DNA from: Betaproteobacteria bacterium
GTDB lineage: Bacteria > Pseudomonadota > Gammaproteobacteria > Burkholderiales > Rhodocyclaceae
Direction of reading: 5' to 3'
DNA length: 34,320 bases
Assembly: GCA_009780885.1 (NCBI GenBank)
Contig: WQZF01000022.1
Span: 1-34,320 of the forward strand
The notes under the pieces were generated by a model. The model worked only from the letters and a program-made list of their open reading frames with translations. It did not search any database and was not told the DNA's origin. Position 1 is the first letter of the stretch. Each line of letters starts with the position of its first letter. The position numbers and the translations under genes were made by a program. Positions 5,830 to 34,205 of this stretch are shown in pieces.

Positions 5830-5857
5830 GGCACGAGGACGGAATGACGACCGCGCA

Positions 5858-5936
5858 GGACGGGCAGAGCGTAGCGGAATCCATGATTCCTCAATCTGGA
5901 AGCGCGATGGGTTTCGCTTCGCTCTACCCATCCTAC
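5858..5936. repeat. Family A REP-like element, degenerate copy 2 (right arm intact, left arm decayed)
   Basis: Right arm tgggtttcgcttcgctctacccatcctac is identical to copy 1. The left arm gggcagagcgtagcggaatcca is only partly conserved. Confidence 0.55.
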
Positions 5937-6005
5937 ATACTTCTTGTTATCGGCGTGATTATGGGCGGAACAGGTTCAGGTTTCGCCAGACGCCCCGGAA
6001 AGGGA

Positions 6006-6133
6006 TTTTTTGAGTCACCCCAAGCTAAAGCTTGGGGATTCCTCGACACAGTGTGGGGCGCCTTCGGCGCCTGTTAGGCTATGTCTCGCTGACCCCGCCA
6101 TGAATGGCGGGGATTGCGCTCGACAGGTGTTCA
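6006..6133 (+). repeat. Family B multi-hairpin repeat, copy 1 (~125 bp; hairpins ccccaagct-aa-agcttgggg, ggcgcc-ttc-ggcgcc, ccccgccat-gaa-tggcgggg)
   Basis: Near-identical copies at 12701-12826 and 23564-23680, plus a truncated copy at 34133-34205, all in the same orientation. This copy overlaps the 3' end of the rtcR ORF. Confidence 0.8.
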
Positions 6134-7745
6134 TCTCCTGTACCGTTTCCCAGTCCAGGCCGAAACGCAGCAGGTATTTTCGTAGGCGGTCCGCGTCGTT
6201 CGCCTGCTTTTTCCTTTGCCGCGAACGGGCGAATAATATCCTTCCTGCATCGGAGAGGCTTTTGCTCCGGTGGCAGGTTTGCAGCACGGTTTCAAGCTGG
6301 CTGCGGTCAAAAAGGTCGAGTTCCCCGGAAATTTCCTTGTCCAGCATGCTTTCCACGATTCCGGGCAGTTTGGGAGCCTCGCTCCAGGCCGCGTGCAGAC
6401 GTTCGATCTCCTCGGCGACATCCGCCTCGGTGATACGTCCGCCTGTCGCCAATGTCGCCATGCGGGTGACGCTGGAAGTGAGTTCGCGGAAATTGCCCGG
6501 CCAGAGGCTTTCCCGCGAACAGGCAAAATCGAGATAACGGCGGCGCGCTTCGACATTGAAACGCACCTGCACGCCGTAATCGCGGGCATGGCGGGCGAGT
6601 TCGTAGTCCAGGTTGGGAGGGATGTCTTCCGGGCGTTCCGCCAGCGCGGGCAAGCTGAATGTCCAGAGGTTGATACGGGCATACAAGTCCGCCCGAAAAC
6701 GGCCTTCACGAATGCGTTCGCGCAGCTCGCGGTTCGTCCCGGCAATGAGCTGGAAATTGCTCTCCACTTCGCTGTCGCCGCCGAAAGGCGGGAAACGTTT
6801 GTCTTCGATGGCCTTGAGCAGCATCGCCTGCTCATCCGTCCCGAGTTCGCCGATTTCATCGAGAAACAACACGCCGCCGTGCGCCGAACGCAGCAGCCCT
6901 GTCCGTTCATTCTGCGCGCCGGTAAAGGCTCCCTTTACATGTCCGAAAAGAGAGGACATCGCCGAGTCGCCCCGCAAGGTCGCGCAATTGACTTCGACAA
7001 AGGGGCCTTTCAGTTTTTGGCGCTCCTGCTTCAACTCGAAAATACGCCGCGCGAGAAAGGATTTGCCCGCGCCGGTCGGCCCGGTCAGCAACATGGGGGC
7101 GCGCGAACGTCCGGCCACGCGCCCGATCTGCTCGATCATGATGTTGAAAGCGGCATTTTTCGTGGCGATGCCGGATTTCAGGCGGCTGATCGCATCCGCC
7201 TGCTCACGGCGGAAACGTTGGGCGATCTGGTCGTAACGGGAAAGGTCGAGGTCGATGACATCGACAAATCCGGCAGGTCTGGCGCTCGTTCCTTCACCTT
7301 CTTCCCCGATGCGGCGCGGCATGGTCTGGATGAGACGCCCCGGAAAATAATGCGCCTCGCTCAACAGGAACCAGCAGATTTGCACCACATGGGTGCCGGT
7401 CGTGATGTGGACGAAATAGTCTTCGCGGTCGATATCGAACTCGTAATCCAGCGAAAAATCGCGCAGCCGGGTGTAGACCTCCTCGAAATCCCAGGGATCG
7501 GAAAGCGCCAGTTCATGACACCGCACCTCGGTGATGGGGGAACCCTCGGCGATATCCCCGGCAATACGTCCGGCCAGTTGCGCGTCGCGTGGGTGGTGCA
7601 GCAATTCCAGCCGATCCACGGGCAAATCCGGCTGGCTGCACAAACCGACGGTGGGACGCCAGCGGCCCATGCGCTTTTGCAGGTTGAAGCCGCCCATGGC
7701 GTCGAGCTTGTTGCCCAGAAAACCAAAGACCACTGTTTTTTTCAT
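6015..7745 (-). CDS. rtcR: Sigma-54-dependent transcriptional regulator RtcR (CARF-like N-domain, AAA+ sigma54-activation domain, C-terminal HTH)
   Basis: N-terminal region typical of RtcR (MKKTVVFGFLGNKLD…), GAFTGA and Walker motifs of the sigma54 activator domain. Divergent from an rtcB-containing operon. Start taken at ATG 7745 (MKKT…); the ORF track begins 8 codons upstream at TTG. The last ~38 codons and the stop are encoded by repeat B1. Confidence 0.85.
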   Translation of the reverse strand: MKKTVVFGFLGNKLDAMGGFNLQKRMGRWRPTVGLCSQPDLPVDRLELLHHPRDAQLAGRIAGDIAEGSPITEVRCHELALSDPWDFEEVYTRLRDFSLDYEFDIDREDYFVHITTGTHVVQICWFLLSEAHYFPGRLIQTMPRRIGEEGEGTSARPAGFVDVIDLDLSRYDQIAQRFRREQADAISRLKSGIATKNAAFNIMIEQIGRVAGRSRAPMLLTGPTGAGKSFLARRIFELKQERQKLKGPFVEVNCATLRGDSAMSSLFGHVKGAFTGAQNERTGLLRSAHGGVLFLDEIGELGTDEQAMLLKAIEDKRFPPFGGDSEVESNFQLIAGTNRELRERIREGRFRADLYARINLWTFSLPALAERPEDIPPNLDYELARHARDYGVQVRFNVEARRRYLDFACSRESLWPGNFRELTSSVTRMATLATGGRITEADVAEEIERLHAAWSEAPKLPGIVESMLDKEISGELDLFDRSQLETVLQTCHRSKSLSDAGRILFARSRQRKKQANDADRLRKYLLRFGLDWETVQEMNTCRAQSPPFMAGSARHSLTGAEGAPHCVEESPSFSLG

Positions 7746-7902
7746 GATGCTCTTACCCTTGGCGATCAATACCCATAAATTATATATATAAATACGATTT
7801 TATATAAAAAGATAATTTTGTTCGCGGGCAAAATATCCGAACGTCCTTGGTTGTTGGGCATTTCTTCATGTTTTTCAACAGGTTATCAAGTTATATCCCT
7901 GT

Positions 7903-7919
7903 CTGGCACGGGATCTGCT
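7903..7919 (+). promoter_or_regulatory. Sigma-54 (-24/-12) promoter TGGCACgggatCTGCta
   Basis: TGGCAC-N5-cTGC matches the RpoN consensus TGGCAC-N5-TTGC with one mismatch. It sits in the AT-rich divergent region between rtcR and the downstream RNA/SPFH/rtcB genes, where an RtcR-dependent promoter is expected. Confidence 0.6.
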
Positions 7920-8064
7920 ATAAGGATAGCGGACGATATTTGTCTTGAGCAGGGATAACAGGTCAGGGGTTCCATTGCCCCGCCGGTGCGCGAGAGCCGC
8001 TTGCAGCGTCGCCTTCGCGTATGCCGCCCGCTCAGGGCATCTGGGTTCCACATTTGCTTGGCAA

Positions 8065-8111
8065 GTGCAAGCAGGGTTGCTTCGTCGGGTTCGATTCCCG
8101 ATTGCACACCA
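8065..8111 (+). ncRNA. tRNA-like minihelix fragment (acceptor-like stem plus T-arm tcggg-ttcgatt-cccga, ending …cacCCA), no D or anticodon arms
   Basis: Read directly: gtgcaag…tcgggttcgattcccgattgcacacca. The T-loop is canonical. Only 13 nt separate the acceptor 5' strand from the T-arm, so this is not a complete tRNA. Confidence 0.35.
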
Positions 8112-8186
8112 TTTGGATGGCTCAGTTGGTAGAGCGGCCAGTGCATAACTGGTTTGTCGCGGGTTCGACTCCCGCTCCAAAAAGCC
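8111..8186 (+). ncRNA. tRNA-like cloverleaf RNA (D-arm gctc/agttggta/gagc; anticodon stem-loop gccag-tgCATaa-ctggt with anticodon CAU; T-arm gcggg-ttcgact-cccgc; 7-bp acceptor with an A1xA72 mismatch; no encoded CCA). Either a Y-RNA-like tRNA mimic or a degenerate tRNA-Met/Ile2
   Basis: Folded by hand from the sequence. All four arms are present with canonical loop sizes, U33 and A37. The acceptor stem is atttgga/tccaaaa and 1:72 is unpaired. It lies ~190 nt downstream of the sigma54 promoter and inside the spurious N-terminal extension of the 8154 ORF. Confidence 0.5.
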
Positions 8187-8441
8187 TTGAAAGGGCTTCT
8201 TCGTTGTAATACCCGCTGGCTGCGGGGGTTTCTCGAAAACTTCCGCTGCCGGCCCGGCCAGACATTCGGCCCGTGCGACGGGCACGGTCCTGGACGCGGA
8301 GCAGGGAAAGGCTTGGCTCTGGACAAGCAGCATTGTCCAGAGGAATCCGGAAGCTGTCTCCGCCCCATGAACCGCCCCCGCCGCATCGAAAGAACCGTCC
8401 GCCGGGCCGGCAAGGCCGGCACTTTATTGAAGGTGAGAAAA

Positions 8442-9581
8442 ATGTTGAAAAAATTCATTGTTCGTGTCAACGAAAAAGGCATCCTGACGCGGGACGGCGA
8501 TTTCCGCGCCATTCTGGAACCGGGGCGTTACCGCTTCCTGCCCTTTGGCGGAAAGCCATCGGTCAGCGCCTTCGCGCAGGATTCGGTGATGATTGCCGAA
8601 TCGATCGTCGATTACCTGCTGCAACGTGATCCGGCGGAAGCGGAAAGGCATTTTGTCGCGATGACGCTCGGAGGCAACGAGGCTGGCCTGCGTTTTGAAA
8701 ACGAGGTGCCGGTCGAGGTATTGCCGCCCGGGTCGCGGCGTTTCATCTGGAAAGGGATGAAAACGCACCGGCTGGAACGTTTCGATCTCGAATCGGGCGC
8801 GGAATTGCCCGGTGCGCTGGCCGCCCAAATCAACCCGGCCACCCCGAAAGGCCGCGCGATCACAGGATTGGACGGTGTTTTGTTCGTCCAGGTGCCTGCC
8901 TGGCATGTGGGTGTGTTGAGCATCGACGGGCGAATCGCGGCCTTGCTCGAACCGGGCCTGAAGGCTTTCTGGCGCTTCAACCGCGACATCCGGGTGGAGT
9001 TGGTCGATACGCGCTTGCAGGTCATGGAGGTGAGCGGCCAGGAAATCATGAGCAAGGACCGCGTGGGTCTGCGGATCAACCTCGTGGCGAGCTGGCGCTA
9101 CACCGATGTGCAAAGGGCGTTTGCCGAAGTCGGAAAACCCTTCGATTACCTGTACCGGGAATTGCAGTTCGGCCTGCGTGCCGCCGTCGGTACCCGCAGC
9201 ATCGACGCGATCCTGGAAAACAAGCAGGACATCGACGAGATGGTTGCCGCGCACGCCAGGGCGAAAATGAGCGGTTTCGGCATCGAGGTCGGAAGCCTCG
9301 GCGTGCGCGATATCATGTTGCCGGGCGACATGAAGGAGATCCTCGCCCGCGTGGTGGAAGCGGAAAAGTCGGCGGAAGCCAACGTCATCCGCCGCCGCGA
9401 GGAAACCGCTGCGACCCGTTCGCTCCTGAACACCGCCAAGGTCATGGAAGACAACCCGGTGGCCTTGCGCTTGAAGGAACTGGAAACCCTGGAACGGGTG
9501 GCTGAACGCATCGACCGCATCTCGGTCTTCGGCGGCCTGGATCAGGTGTTGAACGGCCTTGTGAGCCTGAAAGCGGGATAA
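8442..9581 (+). CDS. SPFH/band-7 domain protein (slipin/stomatin-like)
   Basis: 379-aa reading from the ATG at 8442 (RBS gaaggtgag). SPFH core (…VGLRINLVASWRYTD…IDAILENKQDIDEMVAAH…GIEVGSLGVRDIMLP…) and a coiled-coil C-terminus. The upstream part of the 8154 ORF overlaps the tRNA-like RNA and is not coding. Confidence 0.8.
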   Translation: MLKKFIVRVNEKGILTRDGDFRAILEPGRYRFLPFGGKPSVSAFAQDSVMIAESIVDYLLQRDPAEAERHFVAMTLGGNEAGLRFENEVPVEVLPPGSRRFIWKGMKTHRLERFDLESGAELPGALAAQINPATPKGRAITGLDGVLFVQVPAWHVGVLSIDGRIAALLEPGLKAFWRFNRDIRVELVDTRLQVMEVSGQEIMSKDRVGLRINLVASWRYTDVQRAFAEVGKPFDYLYRELQFGLRAAVGTRSIDAILENKQDIDEMVAAHARAKMSGFGIEVGSLGVRDIMLPGDMKEILARVVEAEKSAEANVIRRREETAATRSLLNTAKVMEDNPVALRLKELETLERVAERIDRISVFGGLDQVLNGLVSLKAG

Positions 9582-9648
9582 TTGAAGAAACGGCGGAGAC
9601 GAGATTCGTCTCCGCCGCCTGCGAAGCCATTGAACCGAAGGAGCCATC

Positions 9649-10023
9649 GTGATGACACGTCTTTTTGCCGCTGCAATCCTGGCCGCTGCCGTTTGCGGCA
9701 GCGTTCATGCGGGCGATCTTTCCTCGCAAGCCAGGGCGGAAGTCGATTATCTGTTTTCCTGGCTGAAGAATTCCGGGTGTCAATTCAACCGGAACGGGAA
9801 ATGGTACAGCGCGGAGGAAGCCGTCTCCCATCTCGACAGGAAGCTCCAATACCTGCTTGATAAAAACATGCTTTCATCCACGGAAGATTTCATCGACAAG
9901 GCCGCGACGGGCAGCAGCATGAGCGGCAAGCCCTATCTGGTCAAATGCGGCAACGAAGCGCCCGTGCAAAGCGAGAGCTGGTTCAGGACTGGACTCTCAA
10001 GATACCGCTCGGAAAAGCATTGA
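9649..10023 (+). CDS. Small secreted/periplasmic protein of unknown function
   Basis: 124 aa with an N-terminal signal peptide (MMTRLFAAAILAAAVCGSVHA↓GD). Lies in the operon between the SPFH gene and rtcB. No recognisable domain. Confidence 0.55.
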   Translation: MMTRLFAAAILAAAVCGSVHAGDLSSQARAEVDYLFSWLKNSGCQFNRNGKWYSAEEAVSHLDRKLQYLLDKNMLSSTEDFIDKAATGSSMSGKPYLVKCGNEAPVQSESWFRTGLSRYRSEKH

Positions 10024-10044
10024 ACGAACCCGGAAGCCAGACTC

Positions 10045-11244
10045 ATGATTGAAGTAAAAGGAAAACACAACACCGCCCTGTGCTATTGCGGGGAACTGGA
10101 ACCCGAGGCGTTCAGGCAGATCAAGGCCGTCTGCGACCGTCAGGAATTCGCGGGCAGCAAGATCCGGATCATGCCGGATGTGCACGCCGGGAAGGGTTGC
10201 ACCATCGGCACCACGATGAGCATCACCGACAAGATCGTGCCGGGCATGGTCGGCGTCGATATCGGCTGCGGGATGGAAACCGTGCGCATCGCCGAACGCG
10301 CGCTGGATTTCTCGAAGCTCGACCATCTGATTCGGGCGGACATTCCGTCCGGGCGCGGTATCCGCAAGAAACATCATCCGCTGAACGCAAAAGTCGATCT
10401 GGAGAAATTGCGCTGCGCCAGCCGCGTCAATGTGGGCCGCGCGCGCCTGAGCATCGGCACATTGGGCGGAGGCAATCACTTCATCGAAGTGGATCGCGCC
10501 GATGACGGAAGCCTGTATCTGGTCGTGCATTCCGGCAGCCGTCACCTTGGGCAGGAAGTCGCCACCTGGTACCAGAGCCAAGCCTGCGAGCGTCTGGCCG
10601 GGCCTTCCAGGAAGACGCTGAACCAGACCATCGCCGCGCTGAAAGCCAAGGGACGGGAACAGGAAATCGAGGGGGCGATCCAAAAATTGATGGAATCCGC
10701 CTCGGATATCCCGAGGGACCTGGCCTACGCCTCGGATGCGCTCTTCGACGATTACCTGCACGATATGCGGATCGTCCAGCGCTTTGCGGCCCTGAACCGG
10801 CAAGCGATGACGGAGGTCATCCTGGAGGGAATGGGCTTGTCCGAAACGGGCCGCTTTACCACCATCCACAATTACATCGACACGGAAGCGATGATCCTGC
10901 GCAAAGGCTCCGTTTCCGCCCGCTCGGGAGAACACCTGCTGATCCCGATCAACATGCGCGACGGCAGCCTGATCTGCGTGGGCAAGGGCAACGCGGAATG
11001 GAATTATTCCGCGCCGCACGGGGCGGGCCGCCTGATGAGCCGCACCAGGGCCTTCAATACCTTGTCGATGGACGAATACCGCTCCGGGATGAAGGATGTT
11101 TTTTCCACCTCGGTCCACCGCGCCACGCTGGATGAATCGCCGATGGCCTACAAGAGCATGGACGAGATTCTTTCGCACATCGCCCCCACGGCGGAAGTCG
11201 TCGAAAGAATCCGGACGGCCTATAACTTCAAGGCGAGCGAGTGA
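10045..11244 (+). CDS. rtcB: RNA-splicing ligase RtcB (3'-phosphate/5'-hydroxyl RNA ligase), short-form family
   Basis: Conserved RtcB metal and GTP-binding motifs: MPDVHAGKG, GGGNHFIE, HSGSRHLG, HNYI, NMRDGS, PHGAGR. 399 aa. No rtcA follows. Confidence 0.9.
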   Translation: MIEVKGKHNTALCYCGELEPEAFRQIKAVCDRQEFAGSKIRIMPDVHAGKGCTIGTTMSITDKIVPGMVGVDIGCGMETVRIAERALDFSKLDHLIRADIPSGRGIRKKHHPLNAKVDLEKLRCASRVNVGRARLSIGTLGGGNHFIEVDRADDGSLYLVVHSGSRHLGQEVATWYQSQACERLAGPSRKTLNQTIAALKAKGREQEIEGAIQKLMESASDIPRDLAYASDALFDDYLHDMRIVQRFAALNRQAMTEVILEGMGLSETGRFTTIHNYIDTEAMILRKGSVSARSGEHLLIPINMRDGSLICVGKGNAEWNYSAPHGAGRLMSRTRAFNTLSMDEYRSGMKDVFSTSVHRATLDESPMAYKSMDEILSHIAPTAEVVERIRTAYNFKASE

Positions 11245-11294
11245 GTTGCCCCGGACTTTATATTCTTGACATGCAGATTGGGATCAAGGTTTTC

Positions 11295-11376
11295 GTAGGG
11301 GACGCCGCCCTCGGCGTTCCGTGCTGCCGATATCAATCCTGCTTCCTGACGGGACGCCGAGGGCGGCGTCCCCTAC
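11295..11376. repeat. Perfect 23-bp inverted repeat (gtaggggacgccgccctcggcgt / acgccgagggcggcgtcccctac) with a ~36-nt loop
   Basis: Read directly, about 50 nt after the rtcB stop. Probably a large terminator or processing hairpin for the rtc operon. No U-run follows. Confidence 0.6.
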
Positions 11377-11405
11377 ATGCCCAGACACGCGCTGCGCGGA
11401 CGTGA

Positions 11406-11483
11406 ATTTTCTAAATTACTGTAATAATTTTTTAATAATAATCACTACAGTAGCGAAATATTCTTTAAGTAAATTTAGAAAAC
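11406..11483. repeat. Family C AT-rich palindromic element, copy 2
   Basis: ttctaaattactgtaataat…ctacagtag…ttaagtaaatttagaaaa, between convergent rtcB and the OMP gene. Confidence 0.7.
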
Positions 11484-12700: not shown

Positions 12701-12826
12701 TTTTGAGTCACCCCAACCTGAAGGTTGGGGATTCCTCGACACAGTGTGTGGCGCCTTTGGCGCCTGTCACGCTATGTCTCGCTGACCCCGCCATGAATGG
12801 CGGGGATTGCGCTCGACAGGTGTTCA
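12701..12826 (+). repeat. Family B multi-hairpin repeat, copy 2
   Basis: About 90% identical to 6006-6133. In the divergent region between the OMP gene and the SDR gene. Confidence 0.8.
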
Positions 12827-12908
12827 ACCGCTGCGCCTCTGCCTGCATATCCCCCCACCGATAGCGGCGCTTTCTTTTCGCAGGATTTTTCAACCCGCCG
12901 GATTCATC

Positions 12909-13685
12909 ATGAACCAGAGCACCGTACCCGAAACCCTCAGGAACGAAACGCCCAATATCCTCATCGTCGGCGCGGCTTCCGCGATTGCCGAGGCGACGGC
13001 TCGTCTGTGGGCGGCGCGGGGGGCGGGCCTGTTTCTGGTCGGGCGCGACGGGGAAAGGCTCGGTGAGATTGCCGCCGATTTGCGCATCCGTGGCGCGCGC
13101 CGGGTGGAGACTTTTGTGATGGACGCGACGGCTTTCGATCAGCACGAAAGGATGCAGGAGGCCGCGCTTTCCGCGCTCGGGAGTCTGGAGATTGCGTTGA
13201 TCGCGCACGGTTCGCTTTCCGACCAGAAAGCCTGTGAAAGCTCGGTGGAGGAAACCCTGCGCGAAATCCAGGTGAACGCGCTTTCGGTGATCGCGCTGGC
13301 AACCCGGCTTGCGGGGGGTTTCGAGGCGCGGGGCGGCGGGTGTCTGGCGGTGATCGGCTCGGTGGCCGGGGATCGCGGGCGCGGGAGCAATTATGTTTAT
13401 GGTTCCGCCAAGGCCTTTGTCGCGCATTTCCTTTCCGGCCTGCGCAACCGCCTCGACCGCAAGGGAGTGCATGTGCTGACGATCAAGCCCGGCTTCGTCG
13501 ATACGCCGATGACTGCGGCGCTGAAGAAGGGAATGCTCTGGGCAAAGCCCGAAGCGATCGCGCGCGGCATCGTCCGCGCGATCGAGCGGCGGCAGGACGA
13601 GGTTTATCTGCCCTCGTTCTGGCGGCTGATCATGTTCGTCGTCCGGCATATCCCGGAACGGATTTTCAAGCGGATGTCGTTGTAG
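12909..13685 (+). CDS. SDR-family short-chain dehydrogenase/reductase
   Basis: Start at MNQSTVP (internal Met of the 12807 ORF). Gly-rich NAD(P) motif ILIVGAASAIAEA and the catalytic YGSAK motif. Confidence 0.85.
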   Translation: MNQSTVPETLRNETPNILIVGAASAIAEATARLWAARGAGLFLVGRDGERLGEIAADLRIRGARRVETFVMDATAFDQHERMQEAALSALGSLEIALIAHGSLSDQKACESSVEETLREIQVNALSVIALATRLAGGFEARGGGCLAVIGSVAGDRGRGSNYVYGSAKAFVAHFLSGLRNRLDRKGVHVLTIKPGFVDTPMTAALKKGMLWAKPEAIARGIVRAIERRQDEVYLPSFWRLIMFVVRHIPERIFKRMSL

Positions 13686-13720
13686 TCGACACAGGTTCGC
13701 CACAAGCAGAATTTGCGCTA

Positions 13721-14038: not shown

Positions 14039-14082
14039 TGGACACCTCCTTCATACGTCTCGCGCGAGTTTCAGCACAAAAT

Positions 14083-14170
14083 GTAGGATGGGTAGAGCGT
14101 AAGCGAAACCCATTGCAATTTACAGGCTACCAGGAAAACGATGGGTTTCGCTACGCTCTACCCATCCTAC
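14083..14170. repeat. Family A REP-like palindromic element, copy 3
   Basis: gtaggatgggtagagcgtaagcgaaaccca…tgggtttcgctacgctctacccatcctac, between rnr and the HTH gene. Confidence 0.75.
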
Positions 14171-14214
14171 CCGCTTTGATTCCATCCGGGAATCCAAAAA
14201 AACCGGCGCCCCTG

Positions 14215-21539: not shown

Positions 21540-21555
21540 AGGGTTTTTCCAATCT

Positions 21556-21633
21556 ATTTTCTAAATTTGACTAAAGAATTCATCCAGCAGAGTCACTACA
21601 GTAGCGGAACATTATTTAAGTAATTTAGAAAAT
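21556..21633. repeat. Family C AT-rich palindromic element, copy 3
   Basis: ttctaaatttgactaaagaatt…ctacagtag…ttaagtaatttagaaaa. Confidence 0.7.
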
Positions 21634-21759
21634 TTACAGTGGCTTTCAAAAAATATCGAAGGCTTTGGAGGATCCGAAGACCGTCCGGGCATTCGCGGCG
21701 AAAGATTTCCGATCTTCAGGAAAGGGGGGATTCAGGAGGCGAGAGCCGCCTCGCGGCGA

Positions 21760-23400: not shown

Positions 23401-23563
23401 CGGAGTTATCTCGGATACGAGGAACCATGCAGGAAAAACATGCAGAAAACGCGGAACCAAACAGGTTCCAGTTTAAGGATTATCGGCGAGCAATTTTGAA
23501 CCATCAACCCATTCTTGATAGTTTTCGGGATTTTTCCTCTTTCCCGCACAGAATTTTGAGTCA

Positions 23564-23680
23564 CCCCAAGCTGAAGCTTGGGGATTCCTCGACACAATGC
23601 GGGGCGCCTTCGGCGCCTGTTAGGCCATGTCTCACTGACCCCGCCATGAATGGCGGGGATTGCGCTCGACAGGTGTTCAA
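23564..23680 (+). repeat. Family B multi-hairpin repeat, copy 3
   Basis: Near-identical to copies 1 and 2. Intergenic between the GGDEF-regulator start and the apaH end. Confidence 0.8.
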
Positions 23681-23743
23681 GGTAGAACACATCCCCGGAA
23701 GAGCCTCAATAGTCGCACGAAATCGGAAAATATGCAGCCTAGT

Positions 23744-33319: not shown

Positions 33320-34057
33320 GTGGCAACAGCGAAACCGAAAGATAGCGAGAAGGACAAGAAATCCGTCGCTAAACCCGCAGTAAAGAAAGCGGCTGCCAAA
33401 CCCGCAGCAAAGGCGGCTGCACCCAAGGCTGCAGCAAAACCGGCGGCGAAGAAACCCGCTGCCAAGCCCGCAGTAAAGAAAGCCGCAGCACCCAAGGCAG
33501 CAGCGAAGCCGGCAGCAAAACCTGCGGCAAAGAAACCCGCTGCGACCAAGGCAGCAGCAGCCAAGCCGGCGGCGAAAACTGCGGCAAAGAAACCCGCTGC
33601 AACCAAGGCGGCAGCAAAACCGGCAGCGAAAAAACCCGCCGCGAAACCCGCAGTGAAGAAAGCGGCAGCACCCAAGGCAGCAGCAAAGCCTGCGGCAAAA
33701 AAACCCGCTGCAACCAAGGCCGCCGCAGCAAAACCGGCAGCGAAAAAACCCGCCGCGAAACCCGCAGTGAAGAAAGCGGCAGCGCCCAAGGCAGCAGCGA
33801 AGCCGGCAGCGAAGGCTGCGGCAAAGAAACCGGCTGCAACCAAGGCCGCTGCGGCAAAACCGGCAGCGAAAAAACCCGCCGCGAAGAAGGCCGCGCCCAA
33901 GCCAGCCGCCAAGGCTTCTGCCCCGGCGCCGGCAGGCTTTTCCGCCTCTTCCGGAATCCTGCCAGGATCGCCGTCCCTGGCGGCAACCCCGGGCGCGAAA
34001 ACAGCGCTCAATCCATCTGCCGCCTGGCCGTTCGCGACAGGTTCCCGTCCAAAATAA
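33320..34057 (+). CDS. Histone H1-like / AlgP-like nucleoid-associated protein (Lys/Ala/Pro-rich KPAAK repeats)
   Basis: GTG start with RBS aggagg. About 200 residues of [18 protein letters not shown] repeats encoded by tandem DNA repeats at 33370-33900. Confidence 0.8.
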
Positions 34058-34108: not shown

Positions 34109-34137
34109 GGACAGGATCGCTCCTGTCCCTTTTTTTT
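34109..34137 (+). terminator. Rho-independent terminator of the histone-like gene
   Basis: gggacagg-atcgct-cctgtccc followed by TTTTTTTT. Confidence 0.65.
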
Positions 34138-34205
34138 GAGTCACCCCAAGCTGAAGCTTGGGGATTCCTCGACACAGAGTGGGGCGCCTTCGGCGCCTGT
34201 TATTG
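34133..34205 (+). repeat. Family B repeat, truncated copy 4 (first ~70 bp only)
   Basis: ttttgagtcaccccaagctgaagcttgggg…ggcgccttcggcgcctgtta, then the sequence diverges from the other copies. Confidence 0.7.

Follow-up and report, generated by a model that had tools for sequence, protein, structure and literature searches.

The window that we analysed, a stretch of 34,320 nucleotides (nt) from the betaproteobacterial contig WQZF01000022.1 (assembly GCA_009780885.1, Rhodocyclaceae), very probably contains one RtcR/sigma54-dependent RNA-repair operon of the Band-7(SPFH)/b7a-tRNA/RtcB class, in which the gene for the activator RtcR is divergent from a sigma54 promoter that is followed by a structured leader RNA, an SPFH/Band-7 gene, a small DUF5329 gene and the gene for the RNA ligase RtcB (Table 1). 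The leader of about 510 nt (about 7930-8441) is non-coding, and the whole of it is one conserved covarying multi-domain RNA. The window copy of the operon is a reduced derivative of the class, without RlaP, RtcA and a treble-clef protein and with an RtcB of another subtype. A first-pass annotation had proposed an RtcR-controlled RNA-repair module with a sigma54 promoter at this place, and we recovered all of its parts at the same positions or within a few bases of them. It had also taken the module for a so-far undescribed variant, a view that did not hold, since the arrangement is that of the Band-7/b7a-tRNA/RtcB class of 2016 and an SPFH protein, PaFlo8, has also been noted in an rtc locus.

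The association of RtcB with Band-7 proteins and the b7a-tRNA is described in a preprint of 2018 (10.1101/312249), which credits Burroughs and Aravind 2016. We found no experimental follow-up of the class in the literature, where the term b7a-tRNA turned up only in that preprint; the class is computationally described and experimentally uncharacterised. The abstract of the 2016 paper by Burroughs and Aravind reportedly pairs SPFH/Band-7 proteins with a novel tRNA-like molecule in a scaffold that would parallel Ro/TROVE proteins and Y RNAs. We did not find the full extent of the leader with its covarying architecture described in the literature that we covered, which does not include the 2016 paper's own account of the extent of the RNA, and we also found no description there of the in-place ligase replacement reported below.

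Conservation of the operon

The related loci used throughout are the 80 best from at least 578 species genomes that encode a close relative of the SPFH protein, in a scan of one genome per species. The class is thereby very widespread, in Pseudomonas, Burkholderia and many Betaproteobacteria, for a group for which we found no functional characterisation in the literature. The 80 loci come from Rhodocyclales-type Betaproteobacteria, Burkholderia, Ralstonia, Pseudomonas and others, and the nearest genome relatives are metagenome-assembled Betaproteobacteria and Zoogloeaceae. The usual order is a divergent rtcR on one side and, on the other, the sigma54 promoter, leader RNA, SPFH gene, in some cases a treble-clef gene, rtcB, RlaP and RtcA. 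The order is conserved and is not unique to the genome studied here.

On the promoter-driven side the module encodes only the SPFH, DUF5329 and RtcB proteins (open reading frame [ORF] listing and Pfam), and the profile search matched all three (PF01145, PF17263 and PF01139). The stop codon of the SPFH gene lies 70 nt before the ATG of the DUF5329 gene at 9652, the next gap is 21 nt, and the promoter scan gave no sigma70-like promoter on the forward strand between 7904 and 11244.

The leader is a conserved multi-domain RNA

The first-pass annotation had described the first 500 nt or so of the transcript as non-coding with tRNA-like structures, and this was borne out, with one complete and one partial tRNA-like element. 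In an alignment of 31 betaproteobacterial leaders of 480-550 nt, conservation runs along the whole length, beyond the tRNA-like element. RNAalifold gave 88 pairs, 58 of them with compensatory changes. Four spurious pairs that joined the promoter TGGC (alignment columns 2-5) to a GCCA (columns 133-136) were dropped, as the promoter is not transcribed, which left 84 pairs in 13 helices. Over these 84 pairs, 93.2% of cells are paired, compared to 36-45% when the partners are slid by 1-3 columns. The 58 compensatory pairs compare to 25-34 in the slid controls, no shuffle out of 500 was as high, and the covariation score is 0.414 compared to at most 0.105 in the slid controls.

The 5' domain of the leader, found by nhmmer at a constant offset in 76 of the 80 loci, consists of the hairpin H1 and the extended hairpin formed by H2 and H3. 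Its 3' edge is the unpaired segment ATGCCGCC, for which no covarying partner was found; the GCGGCA of H13 was checked, and those bases covary within H13. This segment could be a protein-binding site or a tertiary contact. Directly 3' of the second tRNA-like element stands a short hairpin whose stem covaries (AAGCC/GGCUU, CUGUC/GACAG, UUGCC/GGCAA) and which is missing in 4 of the 31 leaders. The 3' domain is a long irregular helix stack with a variable apex that ends about 20 nt before the SPFH start codon, and in 20 Pseudomonas 3' regions, aligned independently, the helices nest in the same way, with compensatory changes in 22 of 47 pairs. In the window and 15 related loci only the tRNA model of Rfam 15 matches, with no family for the 5' or the 3' domain. 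The leader is in this way a concrete and testable RNA, with 13 covarying helices of given coordinates and two domains without an Rfam family.

It is unlikely, in our view, that the leader is a purely cis-acting regulatory 5' untranslated region, not released as an RNA that acts in trans, whose folded domains, possibly by binding protein, tRNA or damaged RNA, control the stability, elongation or translation of the SPFH-rtcB message, a role that would be compatible with the scaffold for RtcB that we propose below. In every case the element is placed after the promoter and before the SPFH start, its 3' domain reaches close to the start codon, terminator-like hairpins were flagged at 8182-8198 and 8406-8420, and there is no terminator between the RNA and the coding genes, all of which fits such a role. 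However, the hairpin at 8406-8420 has no covariation support: it arises locally from a palindromic CCGG, its would-be outer partners (columns 619 and 624) are both purines, and the competing long-range helices H9 and H11 covary. Nor are U-tracts conserved after either of the flagged hairpins, and a conserved terminator or attenuator was rejected at both positions. Moreover, the ribosome-binding site is unpaired in the consensus structure, loci that have neither RtcR nor the sigma54 promoter still keep the 5' domain and the tRNA-like element, and the closest analogues, YrlA and YrlB, are encoded in an operon yet thought to act in trans.

The tRNA-like elements

Two tRNA-like elements abut within the leader. 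The first is a minihelix with an acceptor stem GUGCAA/UUGCAC, a small hairpin, a T-arm (8085-8089/8097-8101, loop UUCGAUU) and an ACCA at 8108-8111. It is absent in a few loci. In Pseudomonas it is a complete cloverleaf, so that those loci carry two full abutting tRNA-likes (ARAGORN); in the Betaproteobacteria the first is reduced to the minihelix. A CCA stands near the junction of the two elements in 17 of the 31 leaders, which hints that a cut at the junction could leave a CCA end.

The second element is a full cloverleaf that matches the published description of the b7a-tRNA, and its helices H5-H8 covary. About 73 of the 80 loci have a homologue, some 260-330 nt before the SPFH start. Among these relatives the D-arm, T-arm and short acceptor stem (UGGA/UCCA) hardly vary, while the "anticodon" arm may have unrelated triplets, loops of 6 nt, an insertion or GAAA, UUCG or GCAA tetraloops, from which it follows that the tRNA body is under selection and decoding is not. 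Judged by their sequences, the tRNA-like elements are mimics and not decoding tRNAs. That 8111-8183 is an ordinary tRNA-Met gene, fallen by chance between rtcR and unrelated genes, is hardly credible, even if ARAGORN calls it CAT and its Rfam tRNA score of 50.5 bits is well above the gathering score of 29. Its loop UGCAUAA, with the nominal anticodon CAU, puts a G in the place of the universal U33, there is an A1-A72 mismatch, and no CCA is encoded. The same D-arm, T-arm and acceptor stem recur at the same offset in the related loci with unrelated or non-anticodon loops, so that the anticodon is not conserved among orthologues, and the element sits inside a larger covarying RNA 3' of the sigma54 promoter. 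A genuine tRNA-Met gene was accordingly rejected.

We regard it as improbable, and more so than a cis-acting leader, that the tRNA-likes serve anticodon nucleases, either as decoys that form a toxin sink or as sensors whose cleavage would yield 2',3'-cyclic-phosphate fragments feeding back on RtcR. RtcR is activated by nicked tRNAs and tRNA halves (PMC10159003), a role as competitive inhibitor has been suggested for YrlA's tRNA-like domain (PMC7790460), and the nominal anticodon differs even among close relatives (CAU, GUU, UUU and GAU), all in favour of this reading. Yet the tetraloops and 6-nt loops of many lineages offer no anticodon-loop target, the parts that are conserved are the D-arm, the T-arm and the short acceptor stem and not the loop, and the YrlA of Salmonella stays uncleaved under inducing conditions.

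RtcR and the sigma54 promoter

The product of rtcR scores 792.7 bits against the NCBIfam RtcR equivalog (cutoff, 650) over residues 1-537 of 576, and a divergent RtcR of 56-86% identity is present in 61 of the 80 loci. PADLOC labels it RtcR--CARF_AAA_HTH and recognises only this protein, so that an annotation of the module as anti-phage defence was rejected. The last 39 or so codons and the stop of the gene come from a 133-nt repeat element (D3, 6008-6140). Binding sites for RtcR presumably sit in the AT-rich region between the divergent genes.

The sigma54 promoter begins at 7904 and not, as first annotated, at 7903, and its divergence from rtcR stands. When one mismatch is allowed, TGGCAC-N5-YTGCW has three matches in the window with 2.07 expected by chance, and the motif by itself is not significant. 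The promoter call carries weight because of its conservation and not because of the motif count: 67 of the 80 loci have a TGGCACG-N4-TCGCW motif 452-603 nt before the SPFH start, and it is missing from loci without RtcR that lie beside tRNA gene arrays. The transcript is expected to start near 7930.

Ten loci have neither RtcR nor the sigma54 motif (L051, L056, L066, L069, L072-L075, L078 and L079; mostly Aquabacterium, Ramlibacter, Roseateles and Rubrivivax). Nine of them keep the tRNA-like element and eight the 5' RNA domain, and RtcB follows the SPFH gene in the five that have enough downstream sequence. At 8 of the 10 the module lies just 3' of two to six ordinary tRNA genes, about 1-2 kilobases (kb) upstream of the SPFH start, in varied mixes of Asp, Phe, Arg, Pro, His, Glu, Leu, Met, Lys, Asn, Ile and Ala. 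Such a setting suggests that the RtcR-less loci use another mode of expression, e.g., read-through from the tRNA operon.

Replacement of RtcB and the 3' end of the operon

RtcB seals 2',3'-cyclic-phosphate or 3'-phosphate ends to 5'-OH ends, and the first-pass annotation had correctly placed its gene after that of the small protein (10045-11244). The translation contains VDIGCG, GGGNHF, HSGSRH, IHNY and PHGAGR, which, matched by eye, we take to be the metal-binding and nucleophile residues known from Pyrococcus horikoshii RtcB, so that the catalytic motifs are presumably intact. The protein is nevertheless not the ligase that the class usually has, being only about 30% identical to the RtcB that lies downstream in about 67 of the 80 loci, and it falls below all NCBIfam RtcB cutoffs (PRK09588, 126.6 bits versus 407). 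It is 81-84% identical to the RtcB of L001 and L002, the two nearest related loci with this subtype. Outside a small betaproteobacterial group its nearest relatives, at 67-72% identity, are from Clostridiales, Gracilibacteraceae, Synergistaceae, Defluviitaleaceae, Peptococcaceae and Candidatus Adiutrix, in whose genomes the gene stands alone, e.g., after fmt, with no RtcR or SPFH gene nearby; a proteobacterial copy of 80% identity follows dprA. By sequence comparison, the window RtcB is a xenologue of a Firmicutes-like stand-alone subtype that was acquired horizontally. As it is so distant from the usual type and so much closer to the stand-alone proteins, the usual RtcB-RlaP-RtcA block has been replaced in place by the acquired ligase. 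This is a clear case of in-place replacement, with a Firmicutes-type RtcB behind a proteobacterial core of RtcR, leader RNA and SPFH protein, and it suggests that this core can work with distantly related RtcB enzymes.

RlaP (PF10127) was found in 36 and RtcA in 28 of the 80 loci, both minimum counts since the fetched loci span 9 kb. No RlaP, RtcA or treble-clef protein was found in the 34-kb window by tblastn (E > 1 for RlaP and RtcA), and there is no room in the module for a Ro60 gene. The first-pass annotation's observation that RtcA and Rsr are missing is thus right for this locus and wrong as a trait of the class, in many members of which RlaP and RtcA follow RtcB; the absence of RtcA is a local loss.

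The hairpin that had been described after rtcB as a perfect one of 23 bp is present, with longer and less perfect arms (28 nt, 96% complementary). This large inverted repeat (I7) begins 50 nt after the rtcB stop, no U-tract follows it, and it was not flagged as an intrinsic terminator. The 161-nt stretch that contains it (11240-11400) has a minimum free energy of -82.4 kcal/mol (z = -5.3). The repeat probably marks the 3' end of the transcript.

DUF5329 and the slot after the SPFH gene

The small signal-peptide protein of the first-pass annotation is indeed encoded at 9652-10023, its called gene starting at the ATG at 9652, and it is a DUF5329 protein with a hydrophobic, signal-peptide-like N terminus (Kyte-Doolittle value of 1.91 for residues 1-19). 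Its standing as a periplasmic part of the module was not upheld. DUF5329 is found in none of the 80 loci, including those whose SPFH protein is 79-92% identical, and it was rejected as a system component on this ground; the exact protein is on only one public contig, from an ENA metagenome (ERZ27257292 k141_1407427). The G+C content of the gene is 0.54-0.55, compared to 0.61-0.62 in the flanking genes, and the slot that it occupies is variable. In 25 of the 80 loci, including L001 and L002, it is filled by a treble-clef zinc-finger gene (PF13451). Gene exchange thus has a hot spot directly 3' of the SPFH gene. Since it is absent from all related loci, is lower in G+C and lies where relatives carry other cargo, DUF5329 is best read as an interchangeable, lineage-specific local insertion.

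Near relatives carry other cargo in the same position: a treble-clef protein, a MoxR-like AAA_5 ATPase and a DUF2201 VWA/metallopeptidase protein in L006 (5242-8502), a HEAT-repeat protein of 1,085 amino acids in L004 (3048-6305), and an ankyrin-repeat protein with two unknown ORFs, followed by RtcB, in L007 (5665-7131).

The SPFH protein

The SPFH protein has 7,330 homologues at E ≤ 1e-10, is 56-92% identical to the SPFH proteins of the 80 loci and has an almost invariant C-terminal half, which by sequence places it in an RtcB-associated clade. It has no transmembrane segment, with a maximum 19-residue Kyte-Doolittle value of 1.43 that falls within its first SPFH strand. The module lacks an NfeD partner gene. 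An AlphaFold2 model (mean predicted local distance difference test score of 79.6) consists of beta domains (residues 1-115), the SPFH domain (146-292) and a long helix (295-360). Foldseek matched this model to stomatin, HflK/C, prohibitin, erlin, flotillin and QmcA in alignments of about 230-260 columns, with E-values from 1e-15 to 1e-10 for stomatin, HflK/C, prohibitin and QmcA. The match to the major vault protein (E about 1e-11) covers 410-470 columns and takes in the N-terminal beta domains, but its TM-score is only 0.36-0.41 and its root mean square deviation 12-14 Å. From the model, the protein is probably soluble and ring or cage forming, and the label "vault-like" is suggestive only. 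The "membrane scaffold" of the first-pass annotation is not supported.

Long forms of the SPFH protein, of 511-525 amino acids (P0036, P0059, P0107 and similar ones, e.g., from Xenorhabdus hominickii), have a duplicated N-terminal beta-domain region, reminiscent of the repeat expansion in the major vault protein.

The first-pass annotation had drawn from the SPFH and DUF5329 genes a new variant that possibly couples the sensing of RNA damage to a membrane or periplasmic function. It is true that SPFH proteins are classically membrane associated and that the best Foldseek matches are stomatin and HflK/C, and DUF5329, with its signal-peptide-like N terminus, is set off from the SPFH gene and rtcB on its two sides by short gaps and is probably cotranscribed with them. 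We nevertheless consider such a coupling very unlikely: the SPFH protein has no transmembrane or hairpin segment and its gene has no NfeD partner in the module, DUF5329 is missing from every related locus and differs from its neighbours in G+C content, and relatives fill its slot with unrelated cargo (treble-clef, MoxR-type AAA and VWA, ankyrin and HEAT proteins).

A proposed scaffold for RtcB

The most likely reading of the operon, to which we give a probability of about 0.4, is by analogy that the leader RNA and the SPFH protein form a scaffold for RtcB. Nicked tRNAs or 5' tRNA halves with a 2',3'-cyclic phosphate would bind the CARF domain of RtcR, as inferred from work on the RtcR of E. 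coli and Salmonella, and ligand-bound RtcR would oligomerise and fire the sigma54 promoter. The leader would then be excised from the primary transcript to yield one or several stable non-coding RNAs, with the tRNA-shaped modules docking RtcB or tRNA-handling factors and the flanking domains binding a ring- or cage-forming SPFH oligomer. The resulting ribonucleoprotein scaffold, a functional counterpart of Ro60 with YrlA, may concentrate RtcB on broken tRNA or rRNA or specialise it for them. If true, a particle of RNA and SPFH protein with RtcB would explain how bacterial RtcB finds its substrates, and it would be relevant to the prokaryotic origins that have been proposed for the vault and Ro ribonucleoproteins. 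A more far-reaching form of the proposal is doubtful, if still likelier than a purely cis-acting leader: that the leader is an undescribed class of large multi-domain RNA, ranging from Betaproteobacteria to Pseudomonas, whose processing would yield the RNA at the core of a soluble SPFH particle, vault-like in form, by which broken RNAs are presented to RtcB, a bacterial counterpart of the vault and Ro ribonucleoproteins.

Several points weigh against the scaffold. The role is argued by analogy with Ro60/Y RNA and vaults, the similarity to the vault is modest (TM-score of about 0.4), and the leader could equally act in cis. We infer from gene spacing only that the SPFH gene, DUF5329 and rtcB are on a single transcript, and the b7a-tRNA was unvalidated as of 2018 (10.1101/312249). 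The 34 kb lack RtcA, which in E. coli and Salmonella contributes to the activation of RtcR, and the inducing signal here could differ for that reason. In the results reported in passages of PMC13086221, which include no RNA-damaging condition, deletion of the P. aeruginosa orthologue PaFlo8 was without phenotype in growth, pyocyanin, secreted protease/elastase activity, swimming, biofilm and oxidative stress.

Relation to known systems

As outlined in the partial accounts of the Band-7/b7a-tRNA/RtcB systems available to us, these have RtcB beside a Band-7/SPFH gene and a predicted tRNA-like RNA under RtcR/sigma54 control, and a scaffold role as a pair, analogous to that of Ro60 with Y RNA, has been proposed for the SPFH protein and the RNA. 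The window fits this outline and differs from it in its Firmicutes-like RtcB, in DUF5329 and in the absence of RlaP, RtcA and the treble-clef protein. Compared to the single tRNA-like element of those accounts, the RNA of the window is far larger, with a 5' domain, a further tRNA-like module and a 3' domain of about 200 nt in addition.

The operon rsr-yrlB-yrlA-rtcB-rtcA of Salmonella likewise combines RtcR/sigma54 control, a tRNA-mimicking non-coding RNA, a putative RNA-binding scaffold protein and RtcB. As the first-pass annotation had noted, a tRNA-like non-coding RNA and an SPFH protein stand in the window where Salmonella has Rsr and Y RNAs. The window module has neither a Ro60/TROVE protein nor RtcA, its RNA lies upstream of the scaffold gene while that of Salmonella lies downstream, and its tRNA-like is a normal, unpermuted cloverleaf, unlike YrlA. 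Membership of the leader in the YrlA/Y-RNA family was rejected, the match scoring 28.2 bits against a gathering score of 69 and spanning the junction of the two tRNA-likes. The rtcBA operon of E. coli shares the divergent rtcR, the sigma54 promoter and the RtcB ligase but has RtcA and neither a long structured leader nor an SPFH gene.

In Pseudomonas aeruginosa PA14, the SPFH gene of PaFlo8 (PA14_60630) is "embedded within the rtc locus" according to passages of a paper of 2026 (PMC13086221), which group PaFlo8 with membrane-microdomain SPFH proteins and do not mention an RNA. P. aeruginosa is not among the 80 loci; the Pseudomonas SPFH proteins that are, with 59-63% identity, include that of P. 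nitroreducens, also a carrier of paFlo8 in those passages. The Pseudomonas loci that we fetched differ from the window in having two full tRNA-likes, the usual RtcB and often RlaP and RtcA. A preprint of December 2025 on RlaP states that the RtcB operons of P. fluorescens and P. aeruginosa differ from that of E. coli only by the RlaP gene and leaves the SPFH gene unmentioned (PMC12776372).

In its predicted fold the SPFH protein partly recalls the eukaryotic vault, whose major vault protein combines beta-repeat domains with an SPFH-like "shoulder" and a long "cap" helix and is associated with a small structured RNA. However, the SPFH protein has 379 amino acids compared to roughly 800-890 in the major vault protein, the TM-score is about 0.4, and there is no relationship at the sequence level outside the SPFH domain. 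With membrane-anchored SPFH proteins (stomatin, HflK/C, flotillin and QmcA) the predicted structure shares an SPFH domain followed by a putative oligomerising helix, and it differs from them in an N terminus of predicted beta domains without a transmembrane helix or membrane hairpin.

Table 1. Coordinates of the features of the RNA-repair operon in the window (strand: +, forward; -, reverse;., none assigned)
Feature	Position(s)	Strand	Evidence or remark
rtcR, CARF-AAA+-HTH sigma54 activator	6015-7745	-	Pfam RtcR, 3.8e-74; Sigma54_activat, 2.9e-49
AT-rich divergent control region	7746-7903	.	G+C of 0.43
sigma70-like promoter for rtcR	7808-7779	-	Promoter scan
sigma54 (-24/-12) promoter TGGCACGGGATCTGCT	7904-7919	+	Sole perfect TGGCAC-N5-YTGCW match in the window
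Leader 5' domain	7958-8026	+	RNAalifold, pair counts; nhmmer
H1, hairpin of 5' domain	7958-7968/7978-7987	+	5/8 pairs compensatory
H2, extended hairpin of 5' domain	7988-7997/8011-8020	+	8/10 pairs compensatory
H3, extended hairpin of 5' domain	7999-8002/8004-8007	+	4/4 pairs compensatory
Unpaired ATGCCGCC, 3' edge of 5' domain	8019-8026	+	Invariant or nearly so in 31 leaders
tRNA-like element 1, minihelix	8065-8111	+	Covariation of T-arm helix H4; single-sequence fold
tRNA-like element 2, full cloverleaf	8111-8183	+	ARAGORN "tRNA-Met CAT"; Rfam tRNA, 50.5 bits (gathering score, 29)
Short hairpin AAGCC-UUGAAAG-GGCUU, directly 3' of tRNA-like element 2	8182-8198	+	Scan; covariation
Leader 3' domain, long irregular helix stack	8215-8420	+	RNAalifold
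H9, 3' domain	8215-8221/8414-8420	+	
H10, 3' domain	8233-8234/8239-8240	+	
H11, 3' domain	8247-8267/8392-8412	+	16/18 pairs compensatory
H12, 3' domain	8273-8274/8385-8386	+	
H13, 3' domain	8275-8288/8371-8384	+	8/11 pairs compensatory
SPFH/Band-7 ("slipin") gene, 379 amino acids	8442-9581	+	PF01145, E = 1.9e-31
DUF5329 small protein gene	9652-10023	+	PF17263, E = 1.9e-35
rtcB, RNA ligase, 399 amino acids	10045-11244	+	PF01139, E = 2.5e-59
Large inverted repeat I7	Arms 11295-11322 and 11349-11376	+	28-nt arms, 96% complementary, 26-nt spacer

Repeats and other genes in the window

Downstream on the contig of the window (L082, 10171-12384 and 12607-13047) are genes for an exoribonuclease of the RNase R/II family (RNB and S1 domains), a protein with a PIN_3 domain and an HTH (HTH_31/HTH_3) protein, which have no established link to the rtc module. 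The repeat that supplies the 3' end of rtcR belongs to a family of about 133 nt with copies of 89-97% identity at 6008-6140, 12701-12833, 23554-23686 and 34132-34202. It has internal hairpins and resembles a miniature inverted-repeat transposable element (MITE) or a repetitive extragenic palindromic (REP) element, and a peptide tail similar to the repeat-derived end of rtcR closes the ORF at 12708-13703. A second family of short repeats is built on the palindrome ATGTAGGATGGGTAGAGCG...CGCTCTACCCATCCTACAT and occurs in both orientations (344-435, 5857-5943 and 14060-14176), with one copy between an SLT_2 transglycosylase gene and rtcR. AT-rich repeats (TTTTCTAAATTACT...), also in both orientations, are found at 11402-11482, just 3' of the rtcB hairpin, and at 2834-2922 and 21544-21637, and may be another small mobile or regulatory repeat. 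Finally, long imperfect tandem repeats with a periodicity of 27, 15 and 12 nt at 33356-33912 encode a low-complexity segment rich in lysine, alanine and proline (KKPAAAKPAA type).

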